NCBI GenBank assembly: GCA_965247485.1 | Contig: OZ252017.1 | Coordinates: 837,664 to 901,663, forward strand | Reading direction: 5' to 3' | Origin: Dehalococcoidia bacterium | GTDB taxonomy: Bacteria; Chloroflexota; Dehalococcoidia; DSTF01; WHTK01 | Length of the DNA stretch: 64,000 bases | In this document: one piece after another, positions 13 through 28,518 of the stretch | How positions within the stretch are numbered: the first letter of the stretch is position 1 | How the letters are laid out: each line of letters begins with the position of its first letter | Notes under the pieces: model-generated | The model's database searches: none | The model's input: only the letters and a program-made list of their open reading frames with translations | Told to the model about the DNA's origin: nothing | Program-made: the position numbers and the translations under genes

Positions 13-843
13 GTGCGGATCAACACAAACGGAATCGAACTCAATGTTGAAATCAGCGGCGAGGGCCCCGCGGTCCTCCTGCTGCACGGATTCACCGGCA
101 GCAGCCAGACCTGGGACCCTTTCCAGGGCATCTGGGACGAATTCACAACCGTGGCAGTCGACATCATCGGCCACGGTAAGTCCGAGTCACCCGCCGACCC
201 GGCGCGTTTCACAATCGATTCCTGCATCGACGACCTTATCGCCTTGCTTGACCAACTCGAAATCAGGCGATGCGGCCTCCTTGGCTATTCGATGGGCAGC
301 CGCATCGCGGTGCGTTTTGCCTTGCGGCATCCACAACGCCTCTGGGCTTTGGTATTAGAGAGCGCCTCTGCCGGTATCGACGATTCAGCCCAGCGACGCG
401 AGCGGCTCACCAGCGATCAGGAACTTGCGGACCGCATCGAGTCTGAAGGTGTCGAGAAGTTCGTAAACTATTGGCAACAAATCCCCATTTGGGCCAGCCA
501 AGCCAGCCTCTCCGCCGAAAGCCGTCAGCAACTACGCGGCCAGCGGCTGACCAACAACCCTCTCGGACTGGCGAATAGCCTGCGCGGCATGGGCGCCGCC
601 AGCGACGAACCAATCATGAGCCAGATCGGCAGCCTCGCCATGCCGGCTCTGCTTGTAGCGGGATCGTTCGACACCCGTTACACCGAAATCGCCACCGAAA
701 TGGCCGCGGCTTTGGCCGCGGCGGAACTAAACGTCATCGAGGACGCCGGCCATGCGGTCCACCTTGAAAAGCCCGGTCGATTTGCCGGTGTCGTCACCGA
801 TTTCTTGCGTTGTTACGCACCCGTACGCGCCGAAGGAGTTTGA
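13..843 (+). CDS. alpha/beta-fold hydrolase, MenH-like (2-succinyl-6-hydroxy-2,4-cyclohexadiene-1-carboxylate synthase); possibly 5'-partial (GTG at 13, frame open to window edge)
   Basis: HGFTGS and GYSMGS (GxSxG nucleophile elbow) motifs; directly upstream of menB-menC-menE. Confidence 0.55.
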
Positions 844-850
844 GTCACAA

Positions 851-1669
851 ATGACTATTGATTGGCAGTCGATTCAGTCCTATACCGACATCCTCTACGA
901 ACACTACGAGGGCATCGCCAAAATAACGATTAACCGGCCCGAGGTGCGAAATGCCTTTCGGCCTCAGACGATCTCGGAGCTGGCCGATGCCTTTAGCCAC
1001 GCCCACCAAGACAGCACAATCGGCGTGATTATCCTCACCGGTGCCGGCGACAAGGCGTTCTGCTCCGGCGGCGACCAGAAGATCCGCGGCGACGGCGGCT
1101 ATATCGGTGACGACGGCGTGCCACGGCTAAACGTTCTCGAACTGCAACGCCAAATCCGCACTTTGCCCAAAGTAGTCATCGCCATGGTCGCGGGCTACGC
1201 GATCGGCGGTGGCCACGTCCTCCACGTTGTCTGCGACCTGACAATCGCCGCCGACAACGCCGTCTTCGGCCAAACCGGTCCAAAAGTCGGCAGTTTCGAC
1301 GCCGGTTACGGCTCCAGCCTGCTGGCTCGCAACGTTGGCCATAAGAAGGCCAAGGAGATCTGGTTTCTTTGCCGCCAGTACTTCGCGTCCGACGCTCTGG
1401 ATATGGGCATGGTCAATGCCGTAGTGCCACTCGACCACCTCGAAGATGAGACGGTCTCCTGGTGCCGAGAAATCCTCGATAAGAGCCCCGTGGCCCTGCG
1501 TTTTCTCAAGGCAGCCTTCAACGCCGACACCGATGGCCTTGCCGGCCTTCAGCAGTTGGCCGGCGACGCCACCCTGCTCTATTACCTGACAGACGAGGCC
1601 AAGGAGGGCAGAAACGCCTTCAATGAAAAGCGCCAGCCAGATTTCAGTCAGTTCCCCCGTTATCCCTAA
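851..1669 (+). CDS. menB: 1,4-dihydroxy-2-naphthoyl-CoA synthase
   Basis: Crotonase fold; characteristic MenB N-terminus MTIDWQ...[26 protein letters not shown] motif; ATG at 851 fits better than upstream M of the track ORF. Confidence 0.9.
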
Positions 1670-1684
1670 TGACCTCTTGAAGCC

Positions 1685-2791
1685 GTGAAAGTTGCAGAGA
1701 TTTCGCTATTCCCGTTTCGCATCCCATTTCGCCGACCCTATGTAACTGCGGCGGGCACCGCCGAAACTCGTGATGGCCTGATCTTTCGCCTGCGGACTGA
1801 CACCGGAATCGTTGGATACGGTGAATCCTCTGTTCTACCCCACAATCCAATTCAATTTGAGGACCTCGCCGACCCGGCGGAAGCCGCGGCCAAGGCGGCC
1901 CTAGGCCAAAACCTTGATCTAACGCCAAATGCGAATCCAGCTGGGGAACCAGCAGTCGTTGCCGCTCGATCGGGACTTGAAATGGCGGCATGGGACGCTC
2001 GTGCCCAGGATAGAGCTCTGCCCCTAGCCCGCCTGCTGAACCCGAAAGCCACTCAAGCGGTGGCTGTAAACGCCCTGCTCAGCCAAAGTTCCCTGGACAA
2101 AACCCTCACCGCCGCCCGAAAGGCGGTTGCAGCCGGCTTCAAGACACTCAAACTCAAGGTCGGAACCTTGCCCGATTTGGCTGGCGAGGAACAGCGGTTG
2201 GCCGCGGTGCGCGCGGTGGTTGGCGCCGACATCAAGCTGCGCCTCGATGCCAATGGCGCTTGGGGCGAAGCTGAGGCCGGGGAGATACTCAACGCCTTCG
2301 CTGCCTACGACATCGAATACGTCGAACAACCAATCGCCGCCGGAAATATCGAAGCGATGCGGCGTCTGCGTTCGAGGACCTCGACCAGAATCGCCCTCGA
2401 CGAAGACGTCACCAGCTTCGCCGCCGCCCAAAACGTTCTCGCGGCCAAAGCCGCCGACTTTCTGATCCTCAAGCCAATCTGCCTCGGCGGAATCGATTCC
2501 ACGATCAAAATCGCCGAAGCGGCACGGGCCGCCGGCGTCGAGGTCGTGATAACAACATCGATTGACACGGGCGTCGGCACCGCGGCAGCCCTGCATCTCG
2601 CCGCTGCGTTGCCCGACCAAAACGCCGCCGGCCTCGCGACGCTGGACCTGCTCTCGTCTCATCTGCTGAAGACCGCACCGGCGATCCAGAATGGGTGCAT
2701 GGCCATTCGCACTCAATCAGGCCTCGGGGTCGAACCTGACCCGGCGGCGCTCGCAAGATTCACGCTACGGCGCATTGAGGTTACGCCGTGA
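1685..2791 (+). CDS. menC: o-succinylbenzoate synthase (enolase superfamily)
   Basis: Enolase-superfamily motifs (KLKVG, LRLDANGAW, ALDEDV); position between menB and menE; GTG start. Confidence 0.7.
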   Translation: MKVAEISLFPFRIPFRRPYVTAAGTAETRDGLIFRLRTDTGIVGYGESSVLPHNPIQFEDLADPAEAAAKAALGQNLDLTPNANPAGEPAVVAARSGLEMAAWDARAQDRALPLARLLNPKATQAVAVNALLSQSSLDKTLTAARKAVAAGFKTLKLKVGTLPDLAGEEQRLAAVRAVVGADIKLRLDANGAWGEAEAGEILNAFAAYDIEYVEQPIAAGNIEAMRRLRSRTSTRIALDEDVTSFAAAQNVLAAKAADFLILKPICLGGIDSTIKIAEAARAAGVEVVITTSIDTGVGTAAALHLAAALPDQNAAGLATLDLLSSHLLKTAPAIQNGCMAIRTQSGLGVEPDPAALARFTLRRIEVTP

Positions 2792-4287
2792 CTGCTTCCG
2801 CCAGTGGCCGGCTCCCGGACTGGCTTCGCGAGCGCGCGAGCTTATCGCCTACTCACACCGCCCTCGTCTGCAACGACGATGTTTGGACCTTCGACGAACT
2901 TGACCGGCGCGCCGATCAGACCGCCATCAGCTTGCTCCTGGCTGGCCTGCGTCCCCGCGAGCGCGTAGCCTTGCTCGCCGGCAATAGCGCCGCCTTCGCC
3001 CAGGTCGCCTTCGCAACCGCCCGAACCAGCGCTACGCTGGTGCCCTTGAACATTCGCCTCACTCAAGCGGAAATCGGTTGGCAACTCTCGGATTGCCAGC
3101 CGGCCTTTATCATCACCGATAAACCCGAACTGATTGGCTCCTCGGCCGCTAGCGGCGCCGGCACCCCAGTTCTCTCCCTTGAAGAGCTCACCACCACGGC
3201 AAGTCACGAAGGGTCCGCGCCCGAACCAGAGATCGATGCCGACGACCCTCGGTGTATCTTCTACACCTCTGGCACCACCGGGAATCCCAAGGGTGCGATC
3301 CTGACTCACGCCAATTTCTTCTGGAGCGCCTTTGGTTCGCTGCTCCAGCTGGGACATCAGACCGGTGACCGCTGGCTGGCCTGCCTGCCGCTGTTTCACA
3401 TCGGCGGCCATTCAATCCTGACTCGCTGCGTGATCAACGGCACCACCAGCGTGATTCACGACTCGTTTGACGCGGAAGAGGCCAATCGTGCCATCGAAAG
3501 CGAAGCTGTCACCATGATTTCCGTTGTCCCGACCATGCTGCAGCGTATGCTCGATGCTCGAGGAGACCAGCCTTTCCCTGCAAACCTGCGCTGCGTCCTT
3601 CTCGGCGGCGGCCCCGTCTCCGGTGAGCTTACGCAACGCTGTCTGCGTCTCGGCGTACCAGCCTCTCAAACCTACGGCTTAACCGAGACAACATCCCAGA
3701 TTACGACCTTGGGACTGCAAGAGCTGGAGCAAAAGCCGGGCTCGGCCGGACGGCCGCTGATGCGATCCAAGATCAGGATTGAACGTCAAGATGGCTCTGT
3801 TTGCCAGCCCGGCGAAACCGGCGAGATTGCCGTCAGCGGCCCGACCATTACCTCGGGCTACTTTGGGCTTCAACAGGAGACAGCTCGCGCCCTTCGCGAC
3901 GGCTGGCTCCAGACCGGCGATGCCGGCTACCTGGATGCCGATGGCTACCTGTTCGTCATCGACCGCCGCGACGACCTGATCGTCTCCGGCGGTGAGAACG
4001 TCTACCCGGCCGAGGTCGAGGCGGTGTTGGAGTCGCACCCTGCCGTTTTGGAGGCCGGTGTCTTTGCTCAGGATGACCCGGACTGGGGTCAATCAGTTGT
4101 GGCTGCCGTCCTCCTCAAGACGGGCACTCAGGCCGATGCCGATGAGCTCCGAAGTCACTGCCGCCAATCGCTGGCGTCATTCAAAGTCCCAAAAACAATT
4201 TGGTTGACCGATGAGCTGCCCCACACCGCATCTGGCAAGCTCCTGCGCCGCGACTTGCGCTCGCGCTTCGCCCCCAGGCAAGCTTGA
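2788..4287 (+). CDS. menE: o-succinylbenzoate-CoA ligase (AMP-binding enzyme)
   Basis: AMP-binding signature YTSGTTGNPKG, YGLTET, GWLQTGD; overlaps menC stop (GTGA). Confidence 0.75.
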   Translation: MTASASGRLPDWLRERASLSPTHTALVCNDDVWTFDELDRRADQTAISLLLAGLRPRERVALLAGNSAAFAQVAFATARTSATLVPLNIRLTQAEIGWQLSDCQPAFIITDKPELIGSSAASGAGTPVLSLEELTTTASHEGSAPEPEIDADDPRCIFYTSGTTGNPKGAILTHANFFWSAFGSLLQLGHQTGDRWLACLPLFHIGGHSILTRCVINGTTSVIHDSFDAEEANRAIESEAVTMISVVPTMLQRMLDARGDQPFPANLRCVLLGGGPVSGELTQRCLRLGVPASQTYGLTETTSQITTLGLQELEQKPGSAGRPLMRSKIRIERQDGSVCQPGETGEIAVSGPTITSGYFGLQQETARALRDGWLQTGDAGYLDADGYLFVIDRRDDLIVSGGENVYPAEVEAVLESHPAVLEAGVFAQDDPDWGQSVVAAVLLKTGTQADADELRSHCRQSLASFKVPKTIWLTDELPHTASGKLLRRDLRSRFAPRQA

Positions 4288-4290: not shown

Positions 4291-5112
4291 ATGCAGACAC
4301 CTGACGGTGACGCCGGAATCACCTTTCTCAACTCAACCGACGGTACCAGTCTCGCCTGCCACCATCAAGGCAGCGGGCCGCCGCTCCTCTTCGTCTATGG
4401 AGCCCTGGCCGACCAAACCTATTGGCGAGCCCTGCTACCGTTCTTGCGCGACAATTTCAGCCTCCATATTTTGGAGCGTCGCGGCCGCGGCGCTAGCGGC
4501 GACACCCAACCATACGCGGCAGAACGCGAGGTTGAAGATGTGGTGGCGGCCGTCGAACACATCGGACAGCCCTGTAACCTCTTTGGGCACTCCTCAGGAG
4601 CAATCCTCGCCCTGGAGGCGGCGCGGAGCACACAGCTTGTGCGCCGGCTCCTCCTCTACGAAACGCCCGTTGATACCAGCGGCACTGGGGAGCCAACCTT
4701 GCAGGCAGGCCTAAAGCAGACACTGGAGCGCATCCTGGCTCAGGGTGACCGCGATCAGGCGGTGGAAACTTTCCTCAGAGACGCCTTTGGTGCCCCCGCG
4801 CCGGCAATCGAAAAACTCAAAGGCAGCCCGCGCTGGCCGGACCACGTCGCCCTGGCTCACACGATGCTTTACGACGCCACCGTCGTGTCCCATTTCAATG
4901 GCGGCGAGATTGATCTGGCTGACTTCGCCACGCCGACCCAGCTTATCCTGGGCGGCTCCAGCCCCAGGGAAGACGCTTCTGGTACCAAGATCCTGGCCGC
5001 CGCCCTCCCTGATAGCCGCCTCTCCGTATTGGAAGGAGAAGGCCACAACGGGGTCTACACGGCGCCCGAGCGCGTTGCGGCGATAGTCAGAGACTTTTGC
5101 GCGTTGGAGTAA
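4291..5112 (+). CDS. alpha/beta hydrolase family protein
   Basis: GHSSGA nucleophile elbow, 273 aa; downstream of men genes. Confidence 0.6.
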   Translation: MQTPDGDAGITFLNSTDGTSLACHHQGSGPPLLFVYGALADQTYWRALLPFLRDNFSLHILERRGRGASGDTQPYAAEREVEDVVAAVEHIGQPCNLFGHSSGAILALEAARSTQLVRRLLLYETPVDTSGTGEPTLQAGLKQTLERILAQGDRDQAVETFLRDAFGAPAPAIEKLKGSPRWPDHVALAHTMLYDATVVSHFNGGEIDLADFATPTQLILGGSSPREDASGTKILAAALPDSRLSVLEGEGHNGVYTAPERVAAIVRDFCALE

Positions 5113-5170
5113 CCTGCTTTTCTCACTACACTCTCATGATGGTAGCCACCTCCGCGGCTAAGATGTCCTC

Positions 5171-6133
5171 ATGACCAGCACGATGCAGGACGCGGTTCAA
5201 ACCAACACCGCGTTGGTTGAGACGCGTGACCTGACCAAACGCTTTGGCGCAAAAATTCTGGCGCTGGATTCTCTAAACGTCACCGTCAATGCCGGCGTCA
5301 CCGGCCTGGTCGGCTCCAACGGTGCGGGCAAGAGCACTTTGATCAAAATCCTCCTCGGCCTGATTCCAGCTAGCGGCGGCTCCGCCTCTCTCTTCGGCTT
5401 CGATGTCGCCACTCAAGGTCCCACGCTCAGGCGGTTCGTCGGCTACATGCCGGAGCATGACTGCCTGCCGCCGGACGTCAGCGCCACCGAGTTTGTTTCG
5501 CACATGGCACAAATCAACGGCCTGCCCCGCGCCGCCGCGCGCGAGCGTACCGCCGAAGTTCTGCGCCACGTCGGCCTGTTTGAGGAGCGCTACCGGGCGA
5601 TCGGCGGTTACTCCACGGGCATGAAACAACGCGTAAATCTCGCCCAAGCCCTGGTCCACGACCCCCGCCTCCTGATGCTTGACGAACCCACCAACGGCCT
5701 CGATCCCGCGGGGCGAGACGAGATGCTCGACCTGATCCGCCGCATTGGCAGCGATTTTCAGATGTCGATCCTGATGTCGTCACATCTGCTCGGCGAAATC
5801 GAGCGCGTTTGTGACCACCTGGTCGTGATCGATGCCGGCCGCCTGATGCGCTCCGATTCGATTTCGAGCTTCACTGAGCAAGAGCAAGTGTTGGCCCTTG
5901 AAGTTGATTCCAAACAAGAAGAACTTGTCGACCGCCTCGCCGCCAAGGGCCTGGAAGCGTCAGTAGACGGACGCTTAATCCTCGTGGCCATAGACGGTTC
6001 AGCGCCTTACGACCTGGTTCGAGACGAAATCGTCGACCTCGGTATCGGTCTGCTTCGCCTGGAACAAAGGCGTCACAGTCTAGAAGACCTCTTCCGGGTT
6101 GAGAACGAAGAGGGGGCCGGCTCGGATGGCTGA
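5171..6133 (+). CDS. ABC transporter ATP-binding protein
   Basis: Walker A GSNGAGKST, signature YSTGMKQRV, Walker B LLMLDEPTNGLD. Confidence 0.85.
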   Translation: MTSTMQDAVQTNTALVETRDLTKRFGAKILALDSLNVTVNAGVTGLVGSNGAGKSTLIKILLGLIPASGGSASLFGFDVATQGPTLRRFVGYMPEHDCLPPDVSATEFVSHMAQINGLPRAAARERTAEVLRHVGLFEERYRAIGGYSTGMKQRVNLAQALVHDPRLLMLDEPTNGLDPAGRDEMLDLIRRIGSDFQMSILMSSHLLGEIERVCDHLVVIDAGRLMRSDSISSFTEQEQVLALEVDSKQEELVDRLAAKGLEASVDGRLILVAIDGSAPYDLVRDEIVDLGIGLLRLEQRRHSLEDLFRVENEEGAGSDG

Positions 6134-7019
6134 GCAAACGGCGAAGGGCACTGGGCGCATCTATGACCTCGGCTACCGTCCCTACGAGGGCGAGAGGCTA
6201 GGCCGTCAATACGCCATACGCTCACTCTTTATTTATAGCCTCCGGGCTGTATTCGGCATTGGCAGATCGATCATGAGCAAGATATTCCCCATTGGACTCG
6301 CGGTTATCGCCCTGGTACCGGCCACGGTTCAACTTGCGATCGCAGCAATAGCACCAGCTGACGTCGAATTTATTACCCATGAGGACTACTTCGGCATCGT
6401 TTCACTGGTCCTGGTGCTATTCTGCGCATTCGCAGCGCCGGAGATCGTTGGACGGGATCAGAGATTTCGCACAATCACGCTTTACTTCTCTCGGGCGCTA
6501 TCCCGTGTGGACTATGTTTCGGCCAACCTCGCCGCGCTGGCAGTCGCCCTCTTGTTTATCCTCCTGACGCCGCAAATAATCCTCCTGTTGGGCGGCGCCG
6601 TCGCCACTGATGACCTTCTCGGCCACCTGCGGGATGACCTGGACAAAGTGCCCCCGATACTCGGAAGCTCGATTGTCGTAGCACTCTTTATGGCTAGTAT
6701 CTCGATGGTCCTGGCCTGCTGGACACCGCGGCGAGCCTTTGCCACCGGCGGCGTCCTGGCCTACTTCGTGGTTTTCAGCGTATTGGCCGGCATCCTGGTC
6801 GAAACCACAACCGGTGGTGTCCAACAATACGTCCTCCTGATTGGCCCGCTAAGCGTTCTCGAAGGCGCCGTACTTTGGATTTTTGGCGAGGCTCCTGACC
6901 ATGACTCTGAGCTAGCCATGGCTGGGCTCAACGGAGCCTACTACCTCCTCGCGGTCGGATGCTATATCGCCGTCGCGCTTGGCGTCCTCTACCGCCGCTT
7001 TCTGAGGATGTCGGTCTGA
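6126..7019 (+). CDS. ABC-2 type transporter permease (multi-TM)
   Basis: Hydrophobic multi-helix protein between two ABC ATPases; ATG at 6126. Confidence 0.55.
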   Translation: MAEQTAKGTGRIYDLGYRPYEGERLGRQYAIRSLFIYSLRAVFGIGRSIMSKIFPIGLAVIALVPATVQLAIAAIAPADVEFITHEDYFGIVSLVLVLFCAFAAPEIVGRDQRFRTITLYFSRALSRVDYVSANLAALAVALLFILLTPQIILLLGGAVATDDLLGHLRDDLDKVPPILGSSIVVALFMASISMVLACWTPRRAFATGGVLAYFVVFSVLAGILVETTTGGVQQYVLLIGPLSVLEGAVLWIFGEAPDHDSELAMAGLNGAYYLLAVGCYIAVALGVLYRRFLRMSV

Positions 7020-7960
7020 TGTCAGTAGTCGAAGTTCCTCAAGTGGCGAATGCGGCGCTTAGCCTGGAAGGCGTGTCTCGCTGGTACGGCAACGTTGTCG
7101 CCGTCAACGACATCTCTTTTTCGCTAGGACCCGGATTAACCGGCTTGCTTGGTCCCAACGGCGCTGGCAAGTCCACCTTGCTTCACATGCTGGCCGGCGT
7201 TCTGAAACCCTCCAGCGGCGAAGCCAAAGTCATGGGACAATCCGCCTGGCGAAATCCGGATATTTACCGCCAGATCGGACTCGTTCCCGAGCGAGAGGCG
7301 ATCTACCTGTTTCTCACCGGCTTTGAATTTGTCCGCCTCAGCGCCCGGTTGCATAACCTGCCAGATGTTGATGCCGCCGCCAACCGAGCGTTGGATCAAG
7401 TCGAGCTAAACGATGTCAAAGACCGAGCCGTCGGTGGCTACTCCAAGGGCATGAAACAGCGCGTCAAGATCGCGGCCGCTATTGTTCACGATCCAGCAAT
7501 CCTGCTTCTAGATGAGCCGTTCAACGGCGCCGATCCAAGACAGCGGCTGCGAATGATGGACATGCTCAGGCAAATGGCCGACAGCGGCGCAACCATCGTC
7601 TTTTCCTCGCACATCCTCGAGGAAGTGGAGCGGCTAGCGTCTAGCGTCCTGGTGATCGTTGCTGGCCGGCTGGCTGCAGCCGGCGATTTCCACGAAATTC
7701 GCCAACTGATGACTGATCGTCCTCACTCGCTCATGCTGCGAACCAGCGACAACCGCGGCCTGGCCGCCGCGCTGATTAACCGGCCTTTCGTGAATGGGAT
7801 TGAAATTCAAGAAGAGTCGATGGCGATCCAGACGTCTGACCTCGGTTCCTTTGTCTCAGAGCTGCCTGGCGTCGCTAAGGACAATGGGGTCAGCCTTTTT
7901 GAACTATCACCCACTGACGAATCCCTTGAGAGCGTCTTCTCATACCTGGTGCGTCGTTGA
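7019..7960 (+). CDS. ABC transporter ATP-binding protein (second ATPase of the system)
   Basis: Walker A GPNGAGKST, signature YSKGMKQRV, Walker B LLLDEPFNGAD; ATG overlaps previous stop (ATGA). Confidence 0.85.
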   Translation: MSVVEVPQVANAALSLEGVSRWYGNVVAVNDISFSLGPGLTGLLGPNGAGKSTLLHMLAGVLKPSSGEAKVMGQSAWRNPDIYRQIGLVPEREAIYLFLTGFEFVRLSARLHNLPDVDAAANRALDQVELNDVKDRAVGGYSKGMKQRVKIAAAIVHDPAILLLDEPFNGADPRQRLRMMDMLRQMADSGATIVFSSHILEEVERLASSVLVIVAGRLAAAGDFHEIRQLMTDRPHSLMLRTSDNRGLAAALINRPFVNGIEIQEESMAIQTSDLGSFVSELPGVAKDNGVSLFELSPTDESLESVFSYLVRR

Positions 7961-8694
7961 CCGCCTTCATCTTTCGCCTAACCCTGCGGCAATTGGTCGG
8001 CCGCAAGAGTACCTTGCTGCTGGTCGGCCTTGGCTTGATCCCGCTCCTCGTCGCTGTCGTTTTTCGTCTCAGCGAGCCGGACATTGACCCGGACCGATGG
8101 GCCGCCCGTGTACTTTATGTGGGTCTGATCGTCACAGCGATCTTGCCACTCACCGTCCTCCTGCTCGGAACCTCGGTGCTGGGCGACGAGCTCGAAGACG
8201 GCACCGCGGTCTATCTTCTGACCAAACCAATGCCTCGCTGGCAGATCCTTCTGCCAAAACTCATGGCCGCCTGGGTGGTTTCGAGCCTCTTGGTTCTGGC
8301 CTCTGCGATTCCAAGTGGAGCAATAGCACTGCAAGGTCAAGGAGACTCTTCGCTGGTCCTCGGCTTCTCTGTGGCAATTCTTGCTGGCGCCTTCGCCTAC
8401 ACGGCAGCATTCGTGTTGCTCAGCATAGTGACCACCCGTGCGCTCATCGCTGGCTTGGTCTATGTCTTCCTCTGGGAAGGCGCGATAACTGGGATATTTG
8501 AAGGCACGCGATTCCTTAGTATCCGCCACTACACGATCGGATTTGCTGATTGGATCGCCGGGGCGCCCACCCAAACACTCGATGCCTATGTCGGCGGGCT
8601 AACCGCCGCCTTCCTGCTGGCCGTGGTCAGCGTCGCCGGCGTCATTTTTGCAAACCGCCGCCTGGAGCAAGCCGAGGTGAGGGAATCCTCTTGA
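7957..8694 (+). CDS. ABC-2 type transporter permease
   Basis: Six hydrophobic segments; translationally coupled to upstream ATPase. Confidence 0.55.
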   Translation: MTAFIFRLTLRQLVGRKSTLLLVGLGLIPLLVAVVFRLSEPDIDPDRWAARVLYVGLIVTAILPLTVLLLGTSVLGDELEDGTAVYLLTKPMPRWQILLPKLMAAWVVSSLLVLASAIPSGAIALQGQGDSSLVLGFSVAILAGAFAYTAAFVLLSIVTTRALIAGLVYVFLWEGAITGIFEGTRFLSIRHYTIGFADWIAGAPTQTLDAYVGGLTAAFLLAVVSVAGVIFANRRLEQAEVRESS

Positions 8695-8704
8695 CCGCTG
8701 CCTC

Positions 8705-9274
8705 TTAAGGTGCTCCACCCGGGCCTCTGCCGCCACCAGGCAACCCACCAGCGCCGGCGAGAAATCCCAAAGCCTCCGGCACTTTACTGATCGCCGTGGC
8801 CACGAAAGTACCATCCTCGTTTTCGCTTCCAATGACGATCACTTTCTGACCCTCCTCAAGACTGCCAACCTCAGCTTGGCTGAGAAGCTGCAAAGTCGTG
8901 GCCGGTCCGAGCACGATTGTTTGGCTGCCACCGCGGGTTTCGATCGTGATCGAATTCTCGCTTATCGCTGTAATGACTCCACTTGGATTCTGGCCCAACA
9001 AACCTCCTGCTCCGCCGAGACCACCGGCTGAACCGGGAGCCGCGCCCGGCGCAGCGCCCGGTTCAGCGGTGTCGCCGCCGTCACCAGCCGCATTGGCCGC
9101 CGCCGACTGCAGAACATCCGTCCCCAGCAGGGTCTGTAGCTGTTGAGCGCTGAGACCGCTCTCGATCGTCTTCGGGTCGCCGCGGCCCACAGCAATTCCG
9201 GCGCCGAAAGCAACTCCAAGCGCGAGCCCAAACACCGCCACGCCCGCTGCTACCTTGCGAAAATCAAAAACCAT
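8705..9274 (-). CDS. secreted/membrane-anchored Gly/Ala/Pro-rich protein with DUF5666-like beta domain
   Basis: N-terminal TM/signal segment, low-complexity GAAPGAAPG linker, C-terminal ITAISENSITIETRGGSQTIVLG repeat-like domain; last gene of the MacAB-like operon. Confidence 0.45.
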   Translation of the reverse strand: MVFDFRKVAAGVAVFGLALGVAFGAGIAVGRGDPKTIESGLSAQQLQTLLGTDVLQSAAANAAGDGGDTAEPGAAPGAAPGSAGGLGGAGGLLGQNPSGVITAISENSITIETRGGSQTIVLGPATTLQLLSQAEVGSLEEGQKVIVIGSENEDGTFVATAISKVPEALGFLAGAGGLPGGGRGPGGAP

Positions 9275-9310
9275 GTCTCTCTCCTAATGGGTTCAGCCTC
9301 TGGATCATTC

Positions 9311-10564
9311 TCATTCGTACCTAAGCGCCTCAATCGGCCGCAGCTTTGCTGCCGGGCGAGCCGGATAAAGCCCAAAGAAAACCCCGATTCCGGCAGCGAC
9401 AGCAAAAGCCATCAGTACCGATGTCCACGACACCACCGTCTGCACGTCCTCTCCCAACCCCGCGATGTCGCGGCCGTCAATAAAGGTCGCTGCCCCCACG
9501 CCGACCAAAATTCCGGCGACTCCACCGATCACCGTCACAGTGAGTGCCTCGGTTAGAAACTGCATCAAGATGTCGCTTTCGCGAGCGCCGACCGCCTTGC
9601 GTATGCCGATCTCCCGCGTCCGCTCGGTCACCGAGACCAGCATGATGTTCATGATCCCGATGCCTCCCACCAGCAGCGAAATACCAGCGATGCTGCCCAG
9701 CAGTACCGTCATCGTCTCGCTGACCTCATTCACCGCCGCCGCGATGTCCTCCTGGCTTTCGATAATCACGTCGGACTCGACAACTTGATGCTGGTCTCGG
9801 AGCAAAAGATCGATCGAGGTCTTCGCCTCGTCGATCTCGCCTTTGTCGGCAACCTGAACCGTGATTTGACTGACAATCGAAGAGTTGCCGGCCCCACGAA
9901 TCGACTGGATTTGGTTTTGGACCGTGGAAATTGGCAGGAAAATCTGGTCGTCGAGGCTGTTTTCGGAGGTGCCCCCCTTGGCTTCAAGGACGCCAACAAC
10001 CCGGACAGTGATCACCAGCCGGCCCAAACCCAGGCGAATCTGCTCCCCGAGAGGACTGGTATCAGGGAATAACTGCTCAGCCACGCTGCTGCCAAGAACC
10101 GCAACCCTGCTGCGCTGGTCGACGTCGGAAACGGATATGAAGGCACCCTCTGCCACTTGCAGCTCATAAGCTTCTGCATAGTCAGCCGTTACCCCAGCGG
10201 CCCTAGTAAAGGTATTCTGGCCGCCACCGCTGACCTGGAGGGGAATCCGGACCTCAGGCGCCACAACCACGGCCTCCGGCAGAAAGGCCAGAATCGCCTC
10301 GGCATCCTCCATCGACAGCGTTTGAGCCGAGCCGGCACCACCCGAAACACCGGCCTGAGTGGATGACCCGGGCCGCACAAAAACCAGGTTGGAGCCCAGG
10401 CCCTCAATCCGGTCCGTAACCGCCTTTTGCGACCCTTGGCCAACCGCCATCAGAGCGATAACTGCCCCAGCTCCGATGACGATGCCCAGCATGGTCAGCA
10501 GAGCCCGCATCTTGTTGGCGATTAGCGCCTCGATCGCGACTTGAACGGCATCCAGGAAGCTCAT
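9311..10564 (-). CDS. MacB/FtsX-family ABC transporter permease
   Basis: MacB_PCD periplasmic domain plus FtsX C-terminal 4 TM; N-terminus [31 protein letters not shown] typical of MacB/LolC/E permeases. Confidence 0.85.
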
Positions 10565-11004
10565 TTGGACTCGGCCGCTTCGGCCACTTCTGCCAGAGCG
10601 CTAGCCGGACTGGCCAGCCGCTCCATTTCCTCCAGGGCCCACCGCGGCGATCCAACCCTGATGTCGTCAACGATCAGGCCGTCACGCATTTGAATAATGC
10701 GCCCGGCATGCTCAGCAATCTCCGCTTCGTGAGTCACATAGATAACTGTGATCCCACGATCCCGGTTAAGGGTTTGGAAAATCGACAATATTTCCAGGCT
10801 CGTCCGGCTGTCAAGATTGCCGGTCGGCTCATCGGCGAGGATTAGAGATGGACCGGTTATCAGGGCGCGGGCGATGGCGACACGTTGTTGCTCACCGCCG
10901 GAGAGCTCTGCCGGCTTGTGGAACAGGCGCTCGCCTAAACCAACCGCCTCGAGCGCCTCCGCCGCCAAGGGCAGGCGGTCACGTATTCCCCGGTAGAGGG
11001 CCAA
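10561..11004 (-). pseudogene. ABC ATPase (MacB/LolD type), C-terminal 147 codons only (Q-loop to H-loop); first codon TTG is the internal Leu of ...ELPLALYRG...
   Basis: [15 protein letters not shown] signature, [11 protein letters not shown]alker B, VTHE H-loop; lacks Walker A, which lies on the opposite strand immediately adjacent. Confidence 0.85.
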
Positions 11005-11333
11005 TGATAGAACTCACAGAACTGACCAAGGTTTACGAGATGGGAGAGCACCAGGTTGTGGCTCTGAACCGCGTAAATCTGAGTATCGAAGACGGGGAAT
11101 TTGTCGCGATCATCGGAGCATCCGGTTTGGGGAAATCGACACTGATGAACGTTCTGGGATGCTTGGATCAACCTACTTCTGGGAGTTATGAACTGGACGG
11201 CCTCGCCGTGGGTGAGCTTACCGAGGATGATCTGGCTCTGGTGCGCAATCAGGCAATTGGATTCGTCTTCCAAAGCTATAACCTGCTGCCGCGGATGCCG
11301 GCGGTGCGACAGGTCGAGCTGCCGTTGGCCTAA
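11004..11333 (+). pseudogene. ABC ATPase N-terminal 109 codons (Walker A) of the same gene, inverted relative to the rest of the operon
   Basis: [46 protein letters not shown]...QVELPLA then stop; continues seamlessly into the minus-strand fragment once the 320-bp segment is flipped. Confidence 0.85.
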
Positions 11334-12976
11334 GGTGCCTGCAGCCCTCTTCCACCACCGCCGCCAGGAACGCCGACTGGGCCGGGAAACTGCTGCTCTG
11401 TCGTTTGCTGCGTCTGAGTTCCGCCGGTCGATGCGGCGATAACCAAGACCTCATCGCCCGGCTCAAGGCCCGAAAGAATTTGAGTCAGCGTGCCGTTCGT
11501 CACCGGGCGGACCTCGTCTCCAGCAGGCGTTTTGACGGTCACGACTTGCTGCCGGCCGGCACCGCTGACGGAGCGCGACGGTACGACCGGAGCGTCATCC
11601 ACCCTCTCAGTCGTCACGAGAATCGACGCGGTCATGCCAGGCGCCGGCAGCGGCACGTCAGTCGCCAAGTCTGCCGTGTTGATCGTCAGGTTGACCGAGA
11701 AAGTGACAACGCCCTGCTGCACCGAAGGAGCCGGGCCGATGGCGCTGACTTCCGCGTTATAGGTTCTGCCTGGCATGGCGTCGAAAGTCACCGTTGCGCT
11801 CTGACCAACCGCGAGGTTGATAATATCGGACTGATCCACGCTCGACTCGATCTCGACCAAGTCCGGATTCATCACCACGATGACTTCCGCCGTTCCCGAG
11901 ACACGGTCGCCCACGACCAAGTTGACTTCGCTAACCAAGTCATCAAACGGCGCAACGATCGTCGCCGCTTCGAGATCGCTGGCGGCGTTTTCCACAGCGA
12001 TCTTCGCTTGTGTAAGCGAAGCCTCCAGCGGCGCGACAACATCTGCTGCCGCTGGACCCATCAGCTCCGCGTATCGCGCGTCGGCCGCGCCCAGTGACGC
12101 GCGAGCCGTTTCCAGACTCAGTTGCACACTTTGAATCTCGCCCGCGTCCGGGCCGGCCAGAGTTTCGTCATATTTCTGCTGGGCAACAACCAGCCCCAAT
12201 TCCGCACTTTCGATCGCGCGCTCCAAGCTCCCGCTGCTGACCCCTTCCAGGTTTTGCGGATTGCTCAAATCGCTCCGTGCTTCTACCAAGGCATCCCTGG
12301 CGTTTTTCAGAGCTGTCTGCGCATTAAGAAGTGATTGCTCGGCCGCCGCGATTTCACTCAGCGTGGGCTTGCTGAGCACCTCATCCAGGTTGGCCTCCGC
12401 CGTCAAGACCTGGCCTTGGGCAGAGGAGATTGACTGCAGAGCCGATGCGGTGTCACTCGCACTCGCACCTTCAAGCACCGCATCCAGGCGCGCCTGAGCC
12501 GAAGCCAGCGAGGCTTCGGCAATCGCCAGCGACTGTTGAAGCTCCGTATCTTCGATCCGCGAGAGTGGTTCACCCGCCGCGACGCTTTCACCAAGGTTGA
12601 CCAGCACCTCGGTTACCTCGCCGGCACTGCCGAACGTTAGCGCCGCCTGTTGTCCGGCAGCCGCACTACCGCTGGCTGATATCGTGCTGTTCAAGGTCGT
12701 TTCAAACGCGGGAATGTAGGTCGCCGCGGTTGGCAAGGGAGCGTTCAGATCCGTTGCCGAGGCGTAGACCTTGTATCCGACAAAGGCCATCGCTAATCCC
12801 AGAACGACAAGGGCGATCACTTCCAACGACGAAGGTCCCCGTGAGATAGATCTCCCTTGCAACAACAGGCGACCGCGACCTCCATCGGCAATTGACTGGC
12901 TCAAAGTAAAATCCTTCTCAGCGATCCTAGTTCTCGCTCTGGAGGCATTTATCAAGAAACCTTTAAACAACAGCAA
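11330..12976 (-). CDS. HlyD-family periplasmic adaptor (membrane fusion protein) of the MacAB-like efflux system
   Basis: N-terminal TM anchor, long coiled-coil (Ala/Leu/Gln-rich), beta-barrel C-terminal domain; 548 aa; upstream of ATPase and permease. Confidence 0.75.
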
Positions 12977-13124
12977 AGATCGATAGAACTTTCTGCGGGG
13001 CCTGCAGGGAATGGCGGCCGGAAATTAGCGCTCTCTCGCCGGCAATTGAGGACCATCACCCCTGATTTTTAAGACCAAACACCTGCCGGCCTCCCCTGAC
13101 CTTCGCGCACCGGACGGCTCCGAT

Positions 13125-13460
13125 GTGCGCGTTCTGCTTGACCTCGAAGGCGGCAGTATGGCCCACTTTGAACTTGCCCCTGGCCGCGCTTCCCAGGCCG
13201 TCGTCCATCGCACCGTCGCCGAAATTTGGTACATCATCAGCGGTAAGGGAGAAATGTGGCGCCGCCAAGACAACCGCGAGGAAGTCATCGACATTGCACC
13301 TGGAACCTGCTTGACGATCCCGCTCGGCACCTCGTTCCAGTTCCGCACCACCAGCCCCGAATCCCTGAGGGCGATAGCGATCACCATGCCACCCTGGCCG
13401 GGTGCAACCGAGGCCGATCAAGTCAGAGGCAAGTGGGTTGCCAACCTCAACGACCGCTGA
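13125..13460 (+). CDS. cupin domain protein
   Basis: Small (about 100 aa) cupin beta-barrel motif pattern; the true start may be the internal Met (MAHFEL...) within the track ORF. Confidence 0.5.
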   Translation: MRVLLDLEGGSMAHFELAPGRASQAVVHRTVAEIWYIISGKGEMWRRQDNREEVIDIAPGTCLTIPLGTSFQFRTTSPESLRAIAITMPPWPGATEADQVRGKWVANLNDR

Positions 13461-13499: not shown

Positions 13500-14156
13500 A
13501 TGATGTCCATGCGACTTTTGCTGGGCACCAAGATCACCGAAGCTGAGCCCGATTGGCGCCAAGCACTGCCGCGGCGTCCGGTGCTGATCGATCTCGGCGC
13601 CGGTGACGGCCGCTTTGCCTATGAACAAGCCAGGCACGATCCGGAAAACCTCTATGTCGCCGTCGACGCTGATAGCGCCACGCTCTCTGAATACGCCTTT
13701 AAAGCCGCCCGCAAGCCCTCCCGTGGCGGGATCGGCAACGCGATTTTTGTCGTTGCGGCGGCCGAAGCGCTGCCTGAGGAGCTGGCGGGCATCGCCAGCC
13801 TTATCCGGGTCAATTTTCCCTGGGGCAGCCTACTGCGCGGCCTTGTGCTGCCGGAACCCACCATCCTCAAGGCCGTAGCCGGTTTGGCTAGTCCTGACGC
13901 ACGCTTTGAGTTTGTCATCTGCTACGACCCGATTCATGACCTCGCCGGCCTCGGCGGTGAGCCCCTCAAGCCGCTGGATCAAACCCGAATCGACACCGTC
14001 TTGGAGCCGGCTTACGCCGCCGCAGGCCTGCTTCTAAAAGCCCGCCGCAAGCTCGACCTCAAAGAAGCCCTGGCCATTCCTTCGACCTGGGGTAGGCGTC
14101 TCGCCTATGGTCACCGCCGGGATGTCTTTTTGATTGAGGGCAGCTTTCAAGTCTGA
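13500..14156 (+). CDS. KamB/NpmA-family 16S rRNA (adenine1408-N1)-methyltransferase homolog (aminoglycoside-resistance type, class I SAM MTase)
   Basis: Family-like motifs along the whole length: LGTK..., IDLGAGDGR (SAM motif I), YVAVD, KPSRGG, NAIFVVAAAEALPEEL, FPWGSLL, RFEFV, WGRRLAYGHRRDVF; 218 aa like KamB/NpmA. Confidence 0.65.
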   Translation: MMSMRLLLGTKITEAEPDWRQALPRRPVLIDLGAGDGRFAYEQARHDPENLYVAVDADSATLSEYAFKAARKPSRGGIGNAIFVVAAAEALPEELAGIASLIRVNFPWGSLLRGLVLPEPTILKAVAGLASPDARFEFVICYDPIHDLAGLGGEPLKPLDQTRIDTVLEPAYAAAGLLLKARRKLDLKEALAIPSTWGRRLAYGHRRDVFLIEGSFQV

Positions 14157-14218: not shown

Positions 14219-14947
14219 ATGGAGCCCTTCATGCTGAATGCGCGCAGCCTCCTGTTCGTCCCGGCCAACAGCGAGGCGATGATCGATGAAGCCGCTGCCA
14301 GCGCTGCTGACGTGGCCGTCCTCGATTTGGCGAACTCTGTGCCCGTGGACCAGAAAATCGCGGCTCGTTCCACGATTCGCTCCACCATCGAAAAACTCAA
14401 GGCAGCGGGCAAGACCGTCCATGTCCGCGTCAGCCATCTCGACTCCGGTTTGACCACGGAAGATTTATCCGCGGCTATCGGGGCCGGTCTCGACGGCATC
14501 GTCTATCCCAAGACCGATGCGCCCCACCAAATTCGAGAGCTTGATGTCTTGATCCGTCAGCAAGAGGTTAGCCACGAAGTACGGCCCGGCACCGCCGGCC
14601 TGTTCCCGCAGCTTGGCAGCGCCAACGGCCTCCTACGCTGCGAGGAAATCGCGCTCGCCTCAACCCGTATCGCCGGCCTCTCCCTCGACATTGAAGCCTA
14701 CACGGCCGATGTCGGCATCTTGCCGACCAGCTCCGGGCACGAACTAGACTATGCTCGCAACGTCCTGACTCACTGCTGCGCCGCGCATAAGCTGATGCCG
14801 CTCGACGTTGCCTTCTCAGAAGTCAAAGACCTTGCCGGACTCACCGAGGAAGCAATTCGCGCCCGCTCGCTTGGCTTCAAAGGCAAGTACCTGATTCATG
14901 CCGACCAAATCGACGCCGTGAACCGCGCATTTGCCCGGACGTCTTAA
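14219..14947 (+). CDS. HpcH/HpaI aldolase / citrate lyase beta (CitE)-like protein
   Basis: N-terminal RSLLFVPANSE...VLDL motif typical of CitE/malyl-CoA lyase family. Confidence 0.7.
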   Translation: MEPFMLNARSLLFVPANSEAMIDEAAASAADVAVLDLANSVPVDQKIAARSTIRSTIEKLKAAGKTVHVRVSHLDSGLTTEDLSAAIGAGLDGIVYPKTDAPHQIRELDVLIRQQEVSHEVRPGTAGLFPQLGSANGLLRCEEIALASTRIAGLSLDIEAYTADVGILPTSSGHELDYARNVLTHCCAAHKLMPLDVAFSEVKDLAGLTEEAIRARSLGFKGKYLIHADQIDAVNRAFARTS

Positions 14948-14994: not shown

Positions 14995-15939
14995 TTAGAA
15001 GCGCTCCGCAAACCACTGATAGCGCTCAGGTGAGAGCTCCAGAAGTCCGACCGGGTCGCCAAAGTAGAGGGCAAAGCTGTTGGCGAAGTCCTCAAGCGGG
15101 TCATTTTTGGAAAGCCCGCTCCAGACCGCCTCACCGTCATAGGCATATTCCACTCGGGAGTGGTCAATTAGCGCTCCAACCTGGCTGGCCGGCGTGAGAA
15201 CTTGCCAGCCTGCCATGGCCATGAAGCTCTGCATCTCATCCCCTAGCAGCACGTCGCGTAGTCACCTGCTGGTGCATATCGCAGATTAAAGGCATGGCCG
15301 AACTCATGCAGAATCGTCAGCACCGGTTGCCTGGGATACAGCACTACTTCATTCAATCCGTCATTGGTCGTAAAGAAGTTGGCCGCTCCACCGTACGGCT
15401 GACTTCCCACTGAAGTAACCCCATCTGTGTTGACGCTAATCTTAATAATTCCCAATGCCGGATTTCCCAGCTCGGCCCTCACGGACGCCGGCAGACTAGC
15501 CAGAGCCTGTTGCACGTGGTCACAAGGTCCCAGTTTCCCGACCCAAGAGCTGGACAGAAGCACCGTCCTCTGCTGGCGCGGCTGGAACCACGGCCACTTG
15601 CTGTTCAAGTGATTCCTCGGCGGCTAGAACCTCCGGGCTAGCCTCGGTTGCGGTGCCAGACTCGGAAACCGAGCTACCTTCAGCTACGAGGCCACCCTGC
15701 GACGGCCATATGCTTTCTACGTAAACCCGCGAGGCGGAGTCAGCGACATAAGTAACGGCCTCGGTGCTCGATGTTTCCGCGACTGAACCAGCGGCCGGCT
15801 CTGCCGGTTGAAGTTCCAGGCTCGGCGCCAGTGATGCGGCGACATGCAGGAAAAACAGTGCCGCCAAGCCTGCGACCAAAGTCAGCAGTAGGCGGCCGGG
15901 GAATTGAAGCGCTCGCGACTGAGCAAATCGAGCTAGCAT
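14995..15939 (-). pseudogene. secreted HExxH zinc metallopeptidase, apparently disrupted by two frameshifts (three overlapping ORF pieces)
   Basis: Piece 1 (15939-15520) signal peptide plus Ser/Ala/Glu-rich linker; piece 2 (15608-15243) ends ...TILHEFGHAFNL (HExxH); piece 3 (15252-14995) continues with LGDEMQ... (candidate third ligand Glu); overlaps of 89 nt and 10 nt in different frames. Confidence 0.4.
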
Positions 15940-17796: not shown

Positions 17797-17870
17797 GCGG
17801 CCAAGGTGTTGTGGTGGCATTCGTCCCTCCCACGGATGAGGCGGGGGTTCAATTCCCCCTGGCCGCTCCA
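17797..17870 (+). tRNA. tRNA, probably tRNA-Gly (anticodon CCC), 74 nt with encoded CCA; integration target of the downstream island
   Basis: Acceptor GCGGCCA/TGGCCGC, anticodon stem CGTCC/GGATG with loop CTCCCAC, T-arm GGGGG-TTCAATT-CCCCC, discriminator T, CCA; D-stem is weak (GTGT/GCAT), hence moderate confidence. Confidence 0.55.
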
Positions 17871-17871
17871 G
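17847..17871. repeat. attL core: 25-bp direct repeat GTTCAATTCCCCCTGGCCGCTCCAG (tRNA 3' end), identical copy at 30205-30229
   Basis: Exact 25/25 match between the two positions. Confidence 0.7.
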
Positions 17872-17897
17872 TCTTTTGCTTCGGTTTTGTATCTAAA

Positions 17898-17919
17898 AGA
17901 GGCCCGTGACAGGGCCTCT
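17898..17919 (-). terminator. perfect 8-bp stem-loop (AGAGGCCC-GTGACA-GGGCCTCT) between tRNA and integrase stop; possible integrase terminator (weak T-tract)
   Basis: Inverted repeat read directly; followed on minus strand by TTTAGAT. Confidence 0.3.
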
Positions 17920-17947
17920 CTAGGGTTCTGACCGCCTATCTGACCGC

Positions 17948-19075
17948 CTAACCGTGAAAAAGCTTATCCATGACGCTTACAGCTTGCTCCTGGGCGCCCT
18001 CGATCACGTGAGCGTAAATGCGCAATGTAGTCGAGATGTCGCTGTGGCCGAGCAGCTCCGAAACCACCTTGACCGGGACACCCTGAGAGAGCAGAACGGT
18101 CGCCGCGGTGTGTCTCAAATCGTGAAATCTCATTCGTGGTAGGCCTGCCTTGTCAAGTAACGGATGCAGCCCGCGGCTTAGGACGTGGCTATTGTCTAGG
18201 GGCTTGCCGAGCGCGTTTGTGAATGCGAGCCCGTATTCTTTCCACGCGGCGCCGGCAAGTTGGCGCTGACTGGGTTGATTAAGTCGATGGGTTTCTAGGG
18301 CCTCGCAAGCGGTTGCCGATAGCCAAACTGTGCGGCGTGACTTCTGAGTCTTCGGCTGGCCAAACAGAGGCTCGCCACCTCTCACTGTGGTCAACGTGCG
18401 GCTCACCTGAACCCGTTGGCGCTCGGTGTCTATGTCGCTCCACCGCAAAGCTTGGAGCTCGCCGAGTCGAAGACCTGACGTTAGTGCGAGGACAAAGAAC
18501 GCCTCAAGGGGATGACCTCTCGCGGCCTCGAGAAGCTGACGGGCATCCTCCGGGCCCAGGTGTCTTTGCTCGCCAGTGCTGCGCCGCGGCGGCGTGACGA
18601 GCGATGCGACATTTCGCCCAACAAGGCCCAGGCGCTCGGCATCACGCAAGGCGACATGGAGAACGCCATGACAATGCGCCACGGTGGTTGCACTGACTCG
18701 CCTTCCAATGGAGGCATAGGCTGCTCGCAAATCGGCCGGCTGAAGCTTGGAAAGGACGCGCCTTCCGAGTGCTGGCCCAAGATGTAGACGGCAAAGTGTG
18801 TTGTAGCGGCGCCACGTTTCCGGCCGTAAATCGCCCTGCTTGCCCTCTAGCCAGCTCGACAAGTACGCGCCAACCAAGAGTTTGTCACCTAGCAACGGGA
18901 GATTATCGTCCTGGCGCTTCTGGGCGTCCCGGAGCTTTTTGGAGACCTCAATGCGAGTCTTGCCGAATAGTGACCGGCGCCGCCGTTTTCCCGTGCTGGG
19001 CAGCGTTAGAGTGGCCTCCCAGCGGCCGTCTGCACGGAGACGGATGCTGCCTTCGCCCTTACCTCTCCGAGTCAT
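17948..19075 (-). CDS. int: tyrosine-type site-specific integrase
   Basis: C-terminal catalytic region HDLRHTAATVLLSQGVPVKVVSELLGHSDISTTLRIYAHV (R..H..R..Y); adjacent to tRNA and att repeat. Confidence 0.9.
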   Translation of the reverse strand: MTRRGKGEGSIRLRADGRWEATLTLPSTGKRRRRSLFGKTRIEVSKKLRDAQKRQDDNLPLLGDKLLVGAYLSSWLEGKQGDLRPETWRRYNTLCRLHLGPALGRRVLSKLQPADLRAAYASIGRRVSATTVAHCHGVLHVALRDAERLGLVGRNVASLVTPPRRSTGEQRHLGPEDARQLLEAARGHPLEAFFVLALTSGLRLGELQALRWSDIDTERQRVQVSRTLTTVRGGEPLFGQPKTQKSRRTVWLSATACEALETHRLNQPSQRQLAGAAWKEYGLAFTNALGKPLDNSHVLSRGLHPLLDKAGLPRMRFHDLRHTAATVLLSQGVPVKVVSELLGHSDISTTLRIYAHVIEGAQEQAVSVMDKLFHG

Positions 19076-19077
19076 CG

Positions 19078-19848: not shown

Positions 19849-19997
19849 TTGCCTACAAATCCTCCCTAGCTGCTATGTCCTTGGATTTTACTTCCATAGC
19901 ATTGCCATTCTGGCGCTTGACGACTGCCATACCAGGATTGATTCTACATCTCAGCAGAGGGCTGTCAAGGGATGGCAACCGCAAGAGGAGGCACCAA

Positions 19998-20192
19998 ATG
20001 GTAACCGAGACCACACGGCTAGCTTATCGAAGGATGGAAGCTGCAAAGGCCATCGATGTCAGCACCGACACCCTGGACAGATTGATTCAACGCGGAGAGA
20101 TCAAGTCTTTCAAGATCGGCGCCGCCATCTGCATCAGCGCTGACGAGCTCACACGTTTCATCAGAGAGCGCGAAGCGGCCGGCGGCGGCTAG
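19998..20192 (+). CDS. excisionase/AlpA-like helix-turn-helix DNA-binding protein
   Basis: AKAIDVSTDTLDRLIQRGEIKSFKIG HTH; RBS GGAGG upstream of ATG 19998; divergent from int. Confidence 0.55.
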   Translation: MVTETTRLAYRRMEAAKAIDVSTDTLDRLIQRGEIKSFKIGAAICISADELTRFIREREAAGGG

Positions 20193-20198
20193 CGCGAA

Positions 20199-22938: not shown

Positions 22939-23068
22939 ACCGTGAAAATCGGTGGCTCATGATGAGGGGGAAGGGGCCCTCGGATACTTCTCAGATATGG
23001 AAACGAACACCGCTACCCTACCACTCCTCGCACGCGGTCAGGTTTCAACCAAGGGGGGTTCAGCCTTA

Positions 23069-28517: not shown

Positions 28518-28518
28518 G

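Follow-up and report, generated by a model that had tools for sequence, protein, structure and literature searches.

An intact homologue of the Kam/NpmA-family 16S rRNA (A1408) methyltransferases at a conserved core-chromosomal position in a Dehalococcoidia bacterium

We analysed 64,000 nucleotides of the chromosome of an uncultured soil Dehalococcoidia bacterium, a stretch that we call the window, with a focus on the gene at its positions 13500..14156 (+). As the original prediction had described it, this is an intact ORF of 218 aa, and its translation is confirmed by the window sequence. The main features of the locus are given below, with L denoting a genome locus used in the comparisons.

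13..4287, + strand: menaquinone operon menH-menB-menC-menE, with menE at 2788-4287.
4291..13460, no strand assigned: lineage-specific stretch of about 9 kb that separates menE from the methyltransferase gene, defined by gene calls and Pfam matches in L001-L009.
13125..13460, + strand: upstream cupin-domain gene, with PF07883 found on the orthologue in L001-L008.
13509..14156, + strand: homologue of the Kam/NpmA-family 16S rRNA (adenine1408-N1)-methyltransferases, 215 aa, annotated from PF24675, a structural model and the starts of homologues.
14219..14947, + strand: downstream HpcH/HpaI (CitE-like) gene, PF03328 at 141.8 bits.
17797-17870: tRNA-Gly(CCC), followed by a tyrosine integrase.
17948..19075, - strand: tyrosine integrase, within a genomic island.

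The translation start is probably the third ATG, at 13509, which yields a 215-aa protein (MRLLLGTK...), because 215 aa is also the length of the identical protein P0001 and of all close homologues, which begin with MR(I/L)L. An exact-sequence look-up with the 218-aa form returned no database match, since the databases use the 215-aa start. Residues are numbered here according to the 215-aa protein, and numbers in the 218-aa ORF are higher by three. All eight motifs listed in the original prediction are present in the same order, namely LGTK, IDLGAGDGR, YVAVD, KPSRGG, NAIFVVAAAEALPEEL, FPWGSLL, RFEFV and WGRRLAYGHRR. Around the methyltransferase gene, a promoter and terminator scan found no sigma70-like promoter and no terminator, and an Rfam scan found no element.

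The four men genes all score above their NCBIfam cutoffs (TIGR03695, 257.9 against 208.6; NF005637, 509.6 against 380; TIGR01927, 143 against 130.6; TIGR01923, 400.4 against 330.2). The predicted placement of the methyltransferase gene between a cupin protein and a CitE-like lyase is borne out by PF07883 and PF03328. The cupin gene has 132 aa in the gene calls of conspecific contigs and hence probably starts further upstream, and the CitE-like neighbour reaches 155.7 bits against the citE model TIGR01588, under the cutoff of 443. The rest of the window is core chromosome, with folE, an F420-dependent PPOX-class oxidoreductase, gyrA, folP, purA and ABC transporters. Its glycosyltransferases adjoin a Polysacc_synt flippase, an arrangement like that of clusters for cell-envelope polysaccharides, and no gene of an aminocyclitol or aminoglycoside pathway (2-deoxy-scyllo-inosose synthase, sugar aminotransferase or other) occurs within the 64-kb window. 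The local GC content is 0.62, compared to about 0.59 for the window.

The block between menE and the methyltransferase contains an alpha/beta-hydrolase, two ABC-2-type exporter pairs, a DUF5666 protein, the cupin and a MacAB-like efflux system, which comprises a MacB/FtsX permease, an ATPase and a YknX-like membrane-fusion protein. It is missing between the two genes in L011-L013, L016, L017 and L019. In the window's own lineage, an insertion of about 9 kb has placed transporter genes and the cupin gene there. Within this block, a 335-bp segment (10998-11332) is inverted relative to five conspecific loci (99.1% identity) and three sister-species loci (82%), and it splits the MacAB-like ABC ATPase into a Walker A half at 10848..11333 (+) and a C-terminal half at 10561..11004 (-). 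The segment is flanked by no real inverted repeat (CCAA/TTGG only), 2 bp are missing at one junction, and the inversion is either a strain-specific event or an assembly artefact. On the other side of the methyltransferase, a 317-aa gene without a Pfam domain (14995-15939, - strand) is intact in L001-L003 and L005 and is broken here into three frames by deletions of 1 bp (near 15253), 7 bp (near 15517, common to L004) and 1 bp (near 15540). The breaks mark either a pseudogene in this strain or long-read indel errors.

Profile, PDB sequence and fold searches all place the protein with the Kam/NpmA family, in agreement with the original prediction. The Pfam profile PF24675 (NpmA family) matches with 188.7 bits against a gathering cutoff of 60 bits (E 1.1e-55), and the alignment of residues 11-213 to profile positions 7-211 of 214 is full-length. 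Four models of named A1408 methyltransferases are the only strong NCBIfam matches, each under its cutoff: WarA (NF051863, 143.3 of 305 bits), NpmB (NF040634, 134.2 of 460), KamB (NF000363, 126.1 of 350) and NpmA (NF000030, 110.7 of 470). Judged by these scores, the protein falls in none of the named subfamilies WarA, NpmB, KamB and NpmA. Sequence matches in the PDB are NpmB1 (7ehf), Kmr (4rwz), NpmA (3mte), KamB (3mq2), CacKam (4x1o) and UncKam (7jlz), spanning E values from 8e-40 (NpmB1, the best, at 7.9e-40) to 8e-20, followed by noise. Taken together, the protein is clearly a real, intact member of the 16S rRNA m1A1408 (Kam/NpmA) methyltransferase family.

An AlphaFold2 model, built from an alignment of 28 homologues, has a pLDDT of 93.5 and a pTM of 0.90, and its N-terminal strands E2-5 and E8-11 form the family-specific beta-hairpin. 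When it was compared to the PDB with Foldseek, the top 19 of 19 matches were A1408 methyltransferases with TM-scores of 0.75-0.90, led by NpmA (3mte; TM 0.90, rmsd 2.5), with KamB at TM 0.88. The modelled match to NpmA and KamB runs over the whole length, including the N-terminal hairpin and the beta5/6 and beta6/7 linkers. After rank 19 there is a sharp drop to TrmB (TM about 0.6, E 7e-9). We rejected a TrmB identity: the TrmB profile PF02390 matches only residues 26-107, with 24.7 bits against a cutoff of 24, TIGR00091 scores 20.5 bits against a cutoff of 112.65, and TrmB reaches E 4e-5 in the NCBIfam search. The relationship is a distant one, and the distant NpmA-TrmB relationship was already noted in the NpmA literature. 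The outcome that the original prediction had named as speaking against it, a lack of Kam-family matches together with best hits to unrelated methyltransferases such as TrmB or RsmC, is the opposite of what the searches gave.

We assigned roles to individual residues from published mutagenesis and structures (PMC4705659, PMC2995053, PMC3061052) and assessed their invariance across the 28 aligned homologues. The functional features, by position in the window or by residue, are as follows.

13587..13613, + strand: SAM-binding motif I, IDLGAGDGR (GxGxG), in which D28 corresponds to NpmA/KamB D30.
D53: SAM binding, corresponds to NpmA/KamB D55, invariant.
E86: SAM binding, corresponds to NpmA/KamB E88, invariant.
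13701..13724, + strand: basic beta2/3 linker KAARKPSR, by alignment the predicted 30S docking surface.
13821..13823, + strand: codon of W105 in the FPWG motif, corresponds to NpmA W107 and KamB W105, which stacks on the flipped A1408, invariant.
14082..14120, + strand: beta6/7 linker, by alignment, S192-T-W194-G-R196-R197-L-A-Y-G-H202-R203-R204.
S192: SAM binding, corresponds to NpmA S195 and KamB T191, invariant.
W194: second stacking tryptophan, corresponds to NpmA W197 and KamB W193, invariant.
R197: beta6/7-linker arginine, corresponds to NpmA R200 and KamB R196, invariant.
R204: base flipping, corresponds to NpmA R207, invariant.

D28, D53, E86, W105, S192, W194, R197 and R204 thus align with residues of NpmA, KamB or CacKam that are essential or important by mutagenesis. 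In motif I, the residues D28, G30, G32, D33 and R35 are invariant across the 28 homologues and G34 is nearly so (at least 90%); the D30A substitution abolishes resistance in both NpmA and KamB (PMC2995053, PMC3061052). The tryptophan equivalent to W105 is likewise essential in NpmA and KamB (PMC2995053, PMC3061052). The original prediction had singled out two tryptophans that stack on A1408, and both are conserved (W105 and W194 for NpmA W107 and W197; W108 and W197 in 218-aa numbering). In the beta2/3 linker, which has a 30S docking role in characterised family members (PMC4705659), K65, R68, K69 and R72 correspond to NpmA K67, K70, K71 and K74, and all but K65 are invariant.

A few positions depart from the characterised enzymes. 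H202 lies eight residues past W194 and adjoins R203; at least 90% of the aligned clade members have an arginine there. Its match to KamB R201 comes from its register relative to the conserved tryptophan and from the equivalences in PMC4705659, not from direct alignment to KamB. R201 is essential in KamB, and the equivalent NpmA mutant, R205A, is fully active (PMC2995053, PMC3061052). The position of NpmA R153 is a glutamate here, within a beta5/6 linker that varies across the family (PMC4705659), and NpmA K66 is not conserved.

Pairwise identities to five characterised members are 42% (WarA), 41% (NpmB1), 38% (Kmr), 38% (CacKam) and 36% (NpmA); the identity comparison and the tree cover these five, with KamB and UncKam left aside. 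In a rough neighbour-joining tree, drawn without bootstrap, the menE-linked Dehalococcoidia sequences group together in a single clade, separate from the five. WarA of Nocardia wallacei is both the best NCBIfam match and the closest in identity, and it is a chromosomal, intrinsic Kam-family member of a non-producer. It differs in that the window's protein stays under the 305-bit WarA equivalog cutoff, in its phylum (Actinomycetota), in its place in a different neighbour-joining clade and in its shorter length (a 190-position model). At a Nocardia wallacei locus (L033, 291-950), the tblastn match to WarA crosses an in-frame stop at codon 16 of the extended frame, which is consistent with WarA being shorter and without the family's N-terminal hairpin.

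NpmB1 is the best PDB sequence match and NpmA (3mte, 4ox9) the best structural match, with NpmA residues D30, D55, E88, W107, S195, W197, R200 and R207 all conserved and R153 and K66 not. In contrast to the core-chromosomal gene described here, NpmA and NpmB, at 36-41% identity, are acquired genes on mobile elements of clinical and gut bacteria. KamB of Streptoalloteichus tenebrarius shares the fold and the equivalents of its essential residues D30, D55, T191, W105, W193 and R196, whereas the equivalent of its R201 is His by register and the score of 126 bits lies under the 350-bit cutoff. KamB is a producer's self-resistance gene, whereas the window holds no biosynthetic cluster. Kmr of Sorangium cellulosum, CacKam of Catenulispora acidiphila and UncKam are chromosomal or environmental family members and offer a precedent for divergent environmental homologues as true A1408 methyltransferases, although they belong to different phyla and Kmr and CacKam are 38% identical to the window's protein. 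On its own, Kmr fails to bind SAM; in CacKam the tryptophan is sequestered and the beta6/7 linker is extended (PMC4705659). Because individual members have such peculiarities, mechanistic details cannot be carried over from them to the window's protein.

The family is small, with 676 cluster representatives at 50% identity (E <= 1e-10) out of 1.84 billion, and a scan of 185,579 species genomes confirmed 119 stretches. Named relatives are nearly all from soil MAGs of Dehalococcoidia and other Chloroflexota, followed by Actinomycetota including Nocardia. The original prediction describes the family as known mostly from aminoglycoside producers, plus a few clinical plasmids. That picture is outdated, as chromosomal and environmental members (Kmr, CacKam, UncKam, WarA, NpmC) have already been described. 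Some MAGs carry two Kam-family genes: MFD04944.bin.2.8 (L012, L067), DTUCFX13 (L050, L055) and CMU.bins.340 (L058, L064). In MFD04944.bin.2.8 the menE-methyltransferase-HpcH context surrounds both copies, an indication that the bin contains mixed strains; the two DTUCFX13 genes, with 41% and 34-35% identity to the query, may be true paralogues. A protein of 79% identity, P0002, was considered as a paralogue in the same genome and rejected; it has the same flanking genes and is the sister-species orthologue. P0001 and P0002 both report a longest carrying contig of 6,013,538 bp, the contigs that we inspected are all 3.0-3.6 Mb, and one public assembly may have joined two related genomes in a single contig.

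The methyltransferase gene is under strong purifying selection. Five conspecific contigs encode an identical protein with 2-3 synonymous and 0 nonsynonymous differences, and dN/dS is about 0.1 (0.13 against the 79%-identity orthologue and 0.10 against a 75%-identity one, with dS near saturation). The reading of the gene as a pseudogene was considered and rejected. Two neighbouring genes are broken in the same strain while the methyltransferase is intact; assembly error is possible for both lesions.

Gene order around the methyltransferase is deeply conserved. The order cupin, methyltransferase, HpcH, 317-aa gene, folE, nitroreductase and PPOX is the same in conspecific and sister-species contigs. 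In 15 of the 15 genome loci with a methyltransferase of at least 52% identity (L009-L021, L039, L067), an HpcH/HpaI gene lies directly downstream. In most of these loci, which represent about 15 species, a menE homologue lies directly upstream on the same strand, with a gap of 0-90 bp to the methyltransferase in six. At that depth, identities are 51-57% for menE, 42-55% for HpcH and 52-62% for the methyltransferase; the neighbours have diverged as much as the methyltransferase, as shared vertical descent predicts. Among the distant homologues (35-48% identity), none has the menE/HpcH context.

A strain-specific genomic island lies downstream of this conserved segment. It extends over 12.4 kb (17847-30229), and its ends are marked by a 25-bp direct att repeat (17847-17871 and 30205-30229) that copies the 3' end of the tRNA-Gly (GTTCAATTCCCCCTGGCCGCTCCAG). 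The stretch 17884-30087 is missing from conspecific contigs. Besides the integrase, the island encodes an excisionase-like protein, a D5-type primase-helicase split into ORFs of 611 and 217 aa and a terminase small subunit in ORFs of 197 and 139 aa; no capsid or large terminase gene was found in its 12.4 kb, and GC falls to 0.48-0.53 at 26-29 kb. This gene content resembles that of a phage satellite (a PICI-like element) in a Chloroflexota genome. In the island-less contigs L001 (14348-15457), L002, L003 and L005, two 25-bp att copies are separated by about 1.08 kb that contains just a 62-aa ORF, and L004 has one copy; the paired copies in four of the five conspecific contigs suggest either what is left of an element or a separate mini-element that uses this tRNA-Gly site. 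In the sister-species contigs L006 and L007 the integrase region aligns at 76% identity, and the only integrase gene called there is a 61-aa fragment.

The original prediction saw no obvious mobile element near the gene. An integrase-bearing one lies 3.7 kb downstream; the methyltransferase is nonetheless outside its att boundaries, and strains that lack the island carry the same protein at the same place. Consequently, the island is irrelevant to the origin of the gene. Recent acquisition with this island or with another element would still find some encouragement in the tRNA-Gly, the tyrosine integrase and the strain-specific 12.4 kb so close by, and in the 9 kb of lineage-specific transporter genes just upstream. 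We give this reading a next to negligible probability, as it is largely refuted by the island-less contigs, by synteny kept down to about 52% identity and by the att boundaries, and the GC content is unremarkable. A producer that encodes an aminoglycoside-like compound elsewhere in its genome, and that protects its ribosomes as KamB does, is also very improbable. KamB-type enzymes do serve actinomycete producers in this way, and the window is a view of 64 kb within a multi-megabase genome (carrying contigs of 3.0-3.6 Mb), but no gene of an aminoglycoside pathway occurs in the window, its glycosyltransferases accompany a flippase, and the linkage across about 15 species is to men and citE, not to a biosynthetic cluster.

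Two further readings turn on what the enzyme does. It may be a Kam-fold enzyme that has come to act on another RNA position, or on a metabolite tied to the neighbouring CoA-ester genes, in line with its conserved adjacency to menE and the CitE-like lyase, its scores below all subfamily cutoffs, its separate tree clade and the H202 substitution. However, the base-stacking tryptophan pair, the base-flipping arginine and the basic linker for 30S docking do not vary within the clade and would have no purpose for a small-molecule substrate, and the full-length fold match to NpmA and KamB includes the N-terminal hairpin and linkers; we see only a slight chance for a changed substrate. The main rival, which overlaps mechanistically with the explanation that we prefer, is a housekeeping role in which A1408 or a nearby decoding-centre base would be methylated constitutively, the gene would be co-transcribed with the men operon, and tolerance would be a by-product. 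A fixed position by housekeeping genes over about 50% protein divergence, on one strand and with 0-90 bp gaps to menE and HpcH, is what such a role would produce; the strong purifying selection, the failure of the scan to find a promoter-like site of the gene's own and the lack of antibiotic biosynthesis genes in the 64-kb window point the same way. Yet so small and patchy a family (676 clusters of 1.84 billion; 119 stretches in 185,579 genomes) is unlike a general ribosome-maturation factor, and PMC12406665 reports that expression of these methyltransferases lowers the fitness of E. coli. Gene order alone is also no proof of co-transcription, and 9 kb separate menE from the gene in the window's lineage. 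We consider the housekeeping role unlikely.

The explanation that we prefer, with a probability of roughly three in four, is that the gene encodes a functional N1-methyltransferase for A1408, has been passed on vertically in its lineage and provides intrinsic tolerance to aminoglycosides of the kanamycin, neomycin and apramycin types. By homology with characterised members, the basic beta2/3 linker of this class I SAM-dependent enzyme would serve to dock it on the assembled 30S subunit, and the beta6/7-linker arginines R197 and R204 would flip A1408 out of helix 44. The flipped base would be held between W105 and W194, and a methyl group would pass from SAM to its N1. The resulting m1A1408 would then block kanamycin-, neomycin- and apramycin-type aminoglycosides, as it does in every characterised system. 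We infer the A1408 target, the resistance phenotype and the expression of the gene; its family, fold, conserved residues, selection, synteny and location off the island are observations.

On the comparison of loci, the gene is best read as an old, vertically inherited chromosomal gene that became fixed between menE and a CitE-like gene, and this ancient position makes intrinsic aminoglycoside tolerance the most likely role. It does not look like producer self-protection or a recent acquisition. WarA of Nocardia wallacei and Kmr of Sorangium are precedents for intrinsic chromosomal members in non-producers. The original prediction had left three origins side by side; conserved synteny favours intrinsic resistance or a housekeeping modification, and the producer-type origin finds no support in the window. 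Counting against the preferred explanation are the subfamily scores far under their cutoffs, the identities of 36-42%, H202, the glutamate at the NpmA R153 position, the heterogeneity of the family as seen in Kmr and CacKam, and the lack of a promoter-like site in the scan around the gene. The tight linkage to genes of CoA-ester metabolism could also reflect a role other than antibiotic resistance.

Methyltransferases that form m1A1408 confer very high-level resistance to several aminoglycoside classes, including apramycin, and the origin of the clinical genes NpmA, NpmB and NpmC is an unsettled question. In the literature searched we found no description of the menE-linked Dehalococcoidia clade, and one genome-survey text makes no mention of Chloroflexota. 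What is new here is a divergent Dehalococcoidia member; chromosomal, non-producer and environmental members (Kmr, CacKam, UncKam, WarA, NpmC) were already known, and only the conserved menE-kam-citE arrangement comes as a mild surprise. The finding leaves the understanding of the family unchanged and reveals no new kind of system. It does identify a divergent, apparently functional clade that is fixed in the core chromosome of soil Dehalococcoidia beside housekeeping genes, thereby widening the known environmental reservoir and offering a candidate that can be expressed. More tentatively, and with the odds against it, the gene may be a lineage-wide, constitutively expressed ribosome-modification gene that has stood at the end of the men operon (menE-kam-citE) since before the species diverged. 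If so, the ribosomes of a Dehalococcoidia lineage would natively carry m1A1408, and the resistance mechanism would have an ancient, vertically inherited origin or reservoir outside producers and pathogens.
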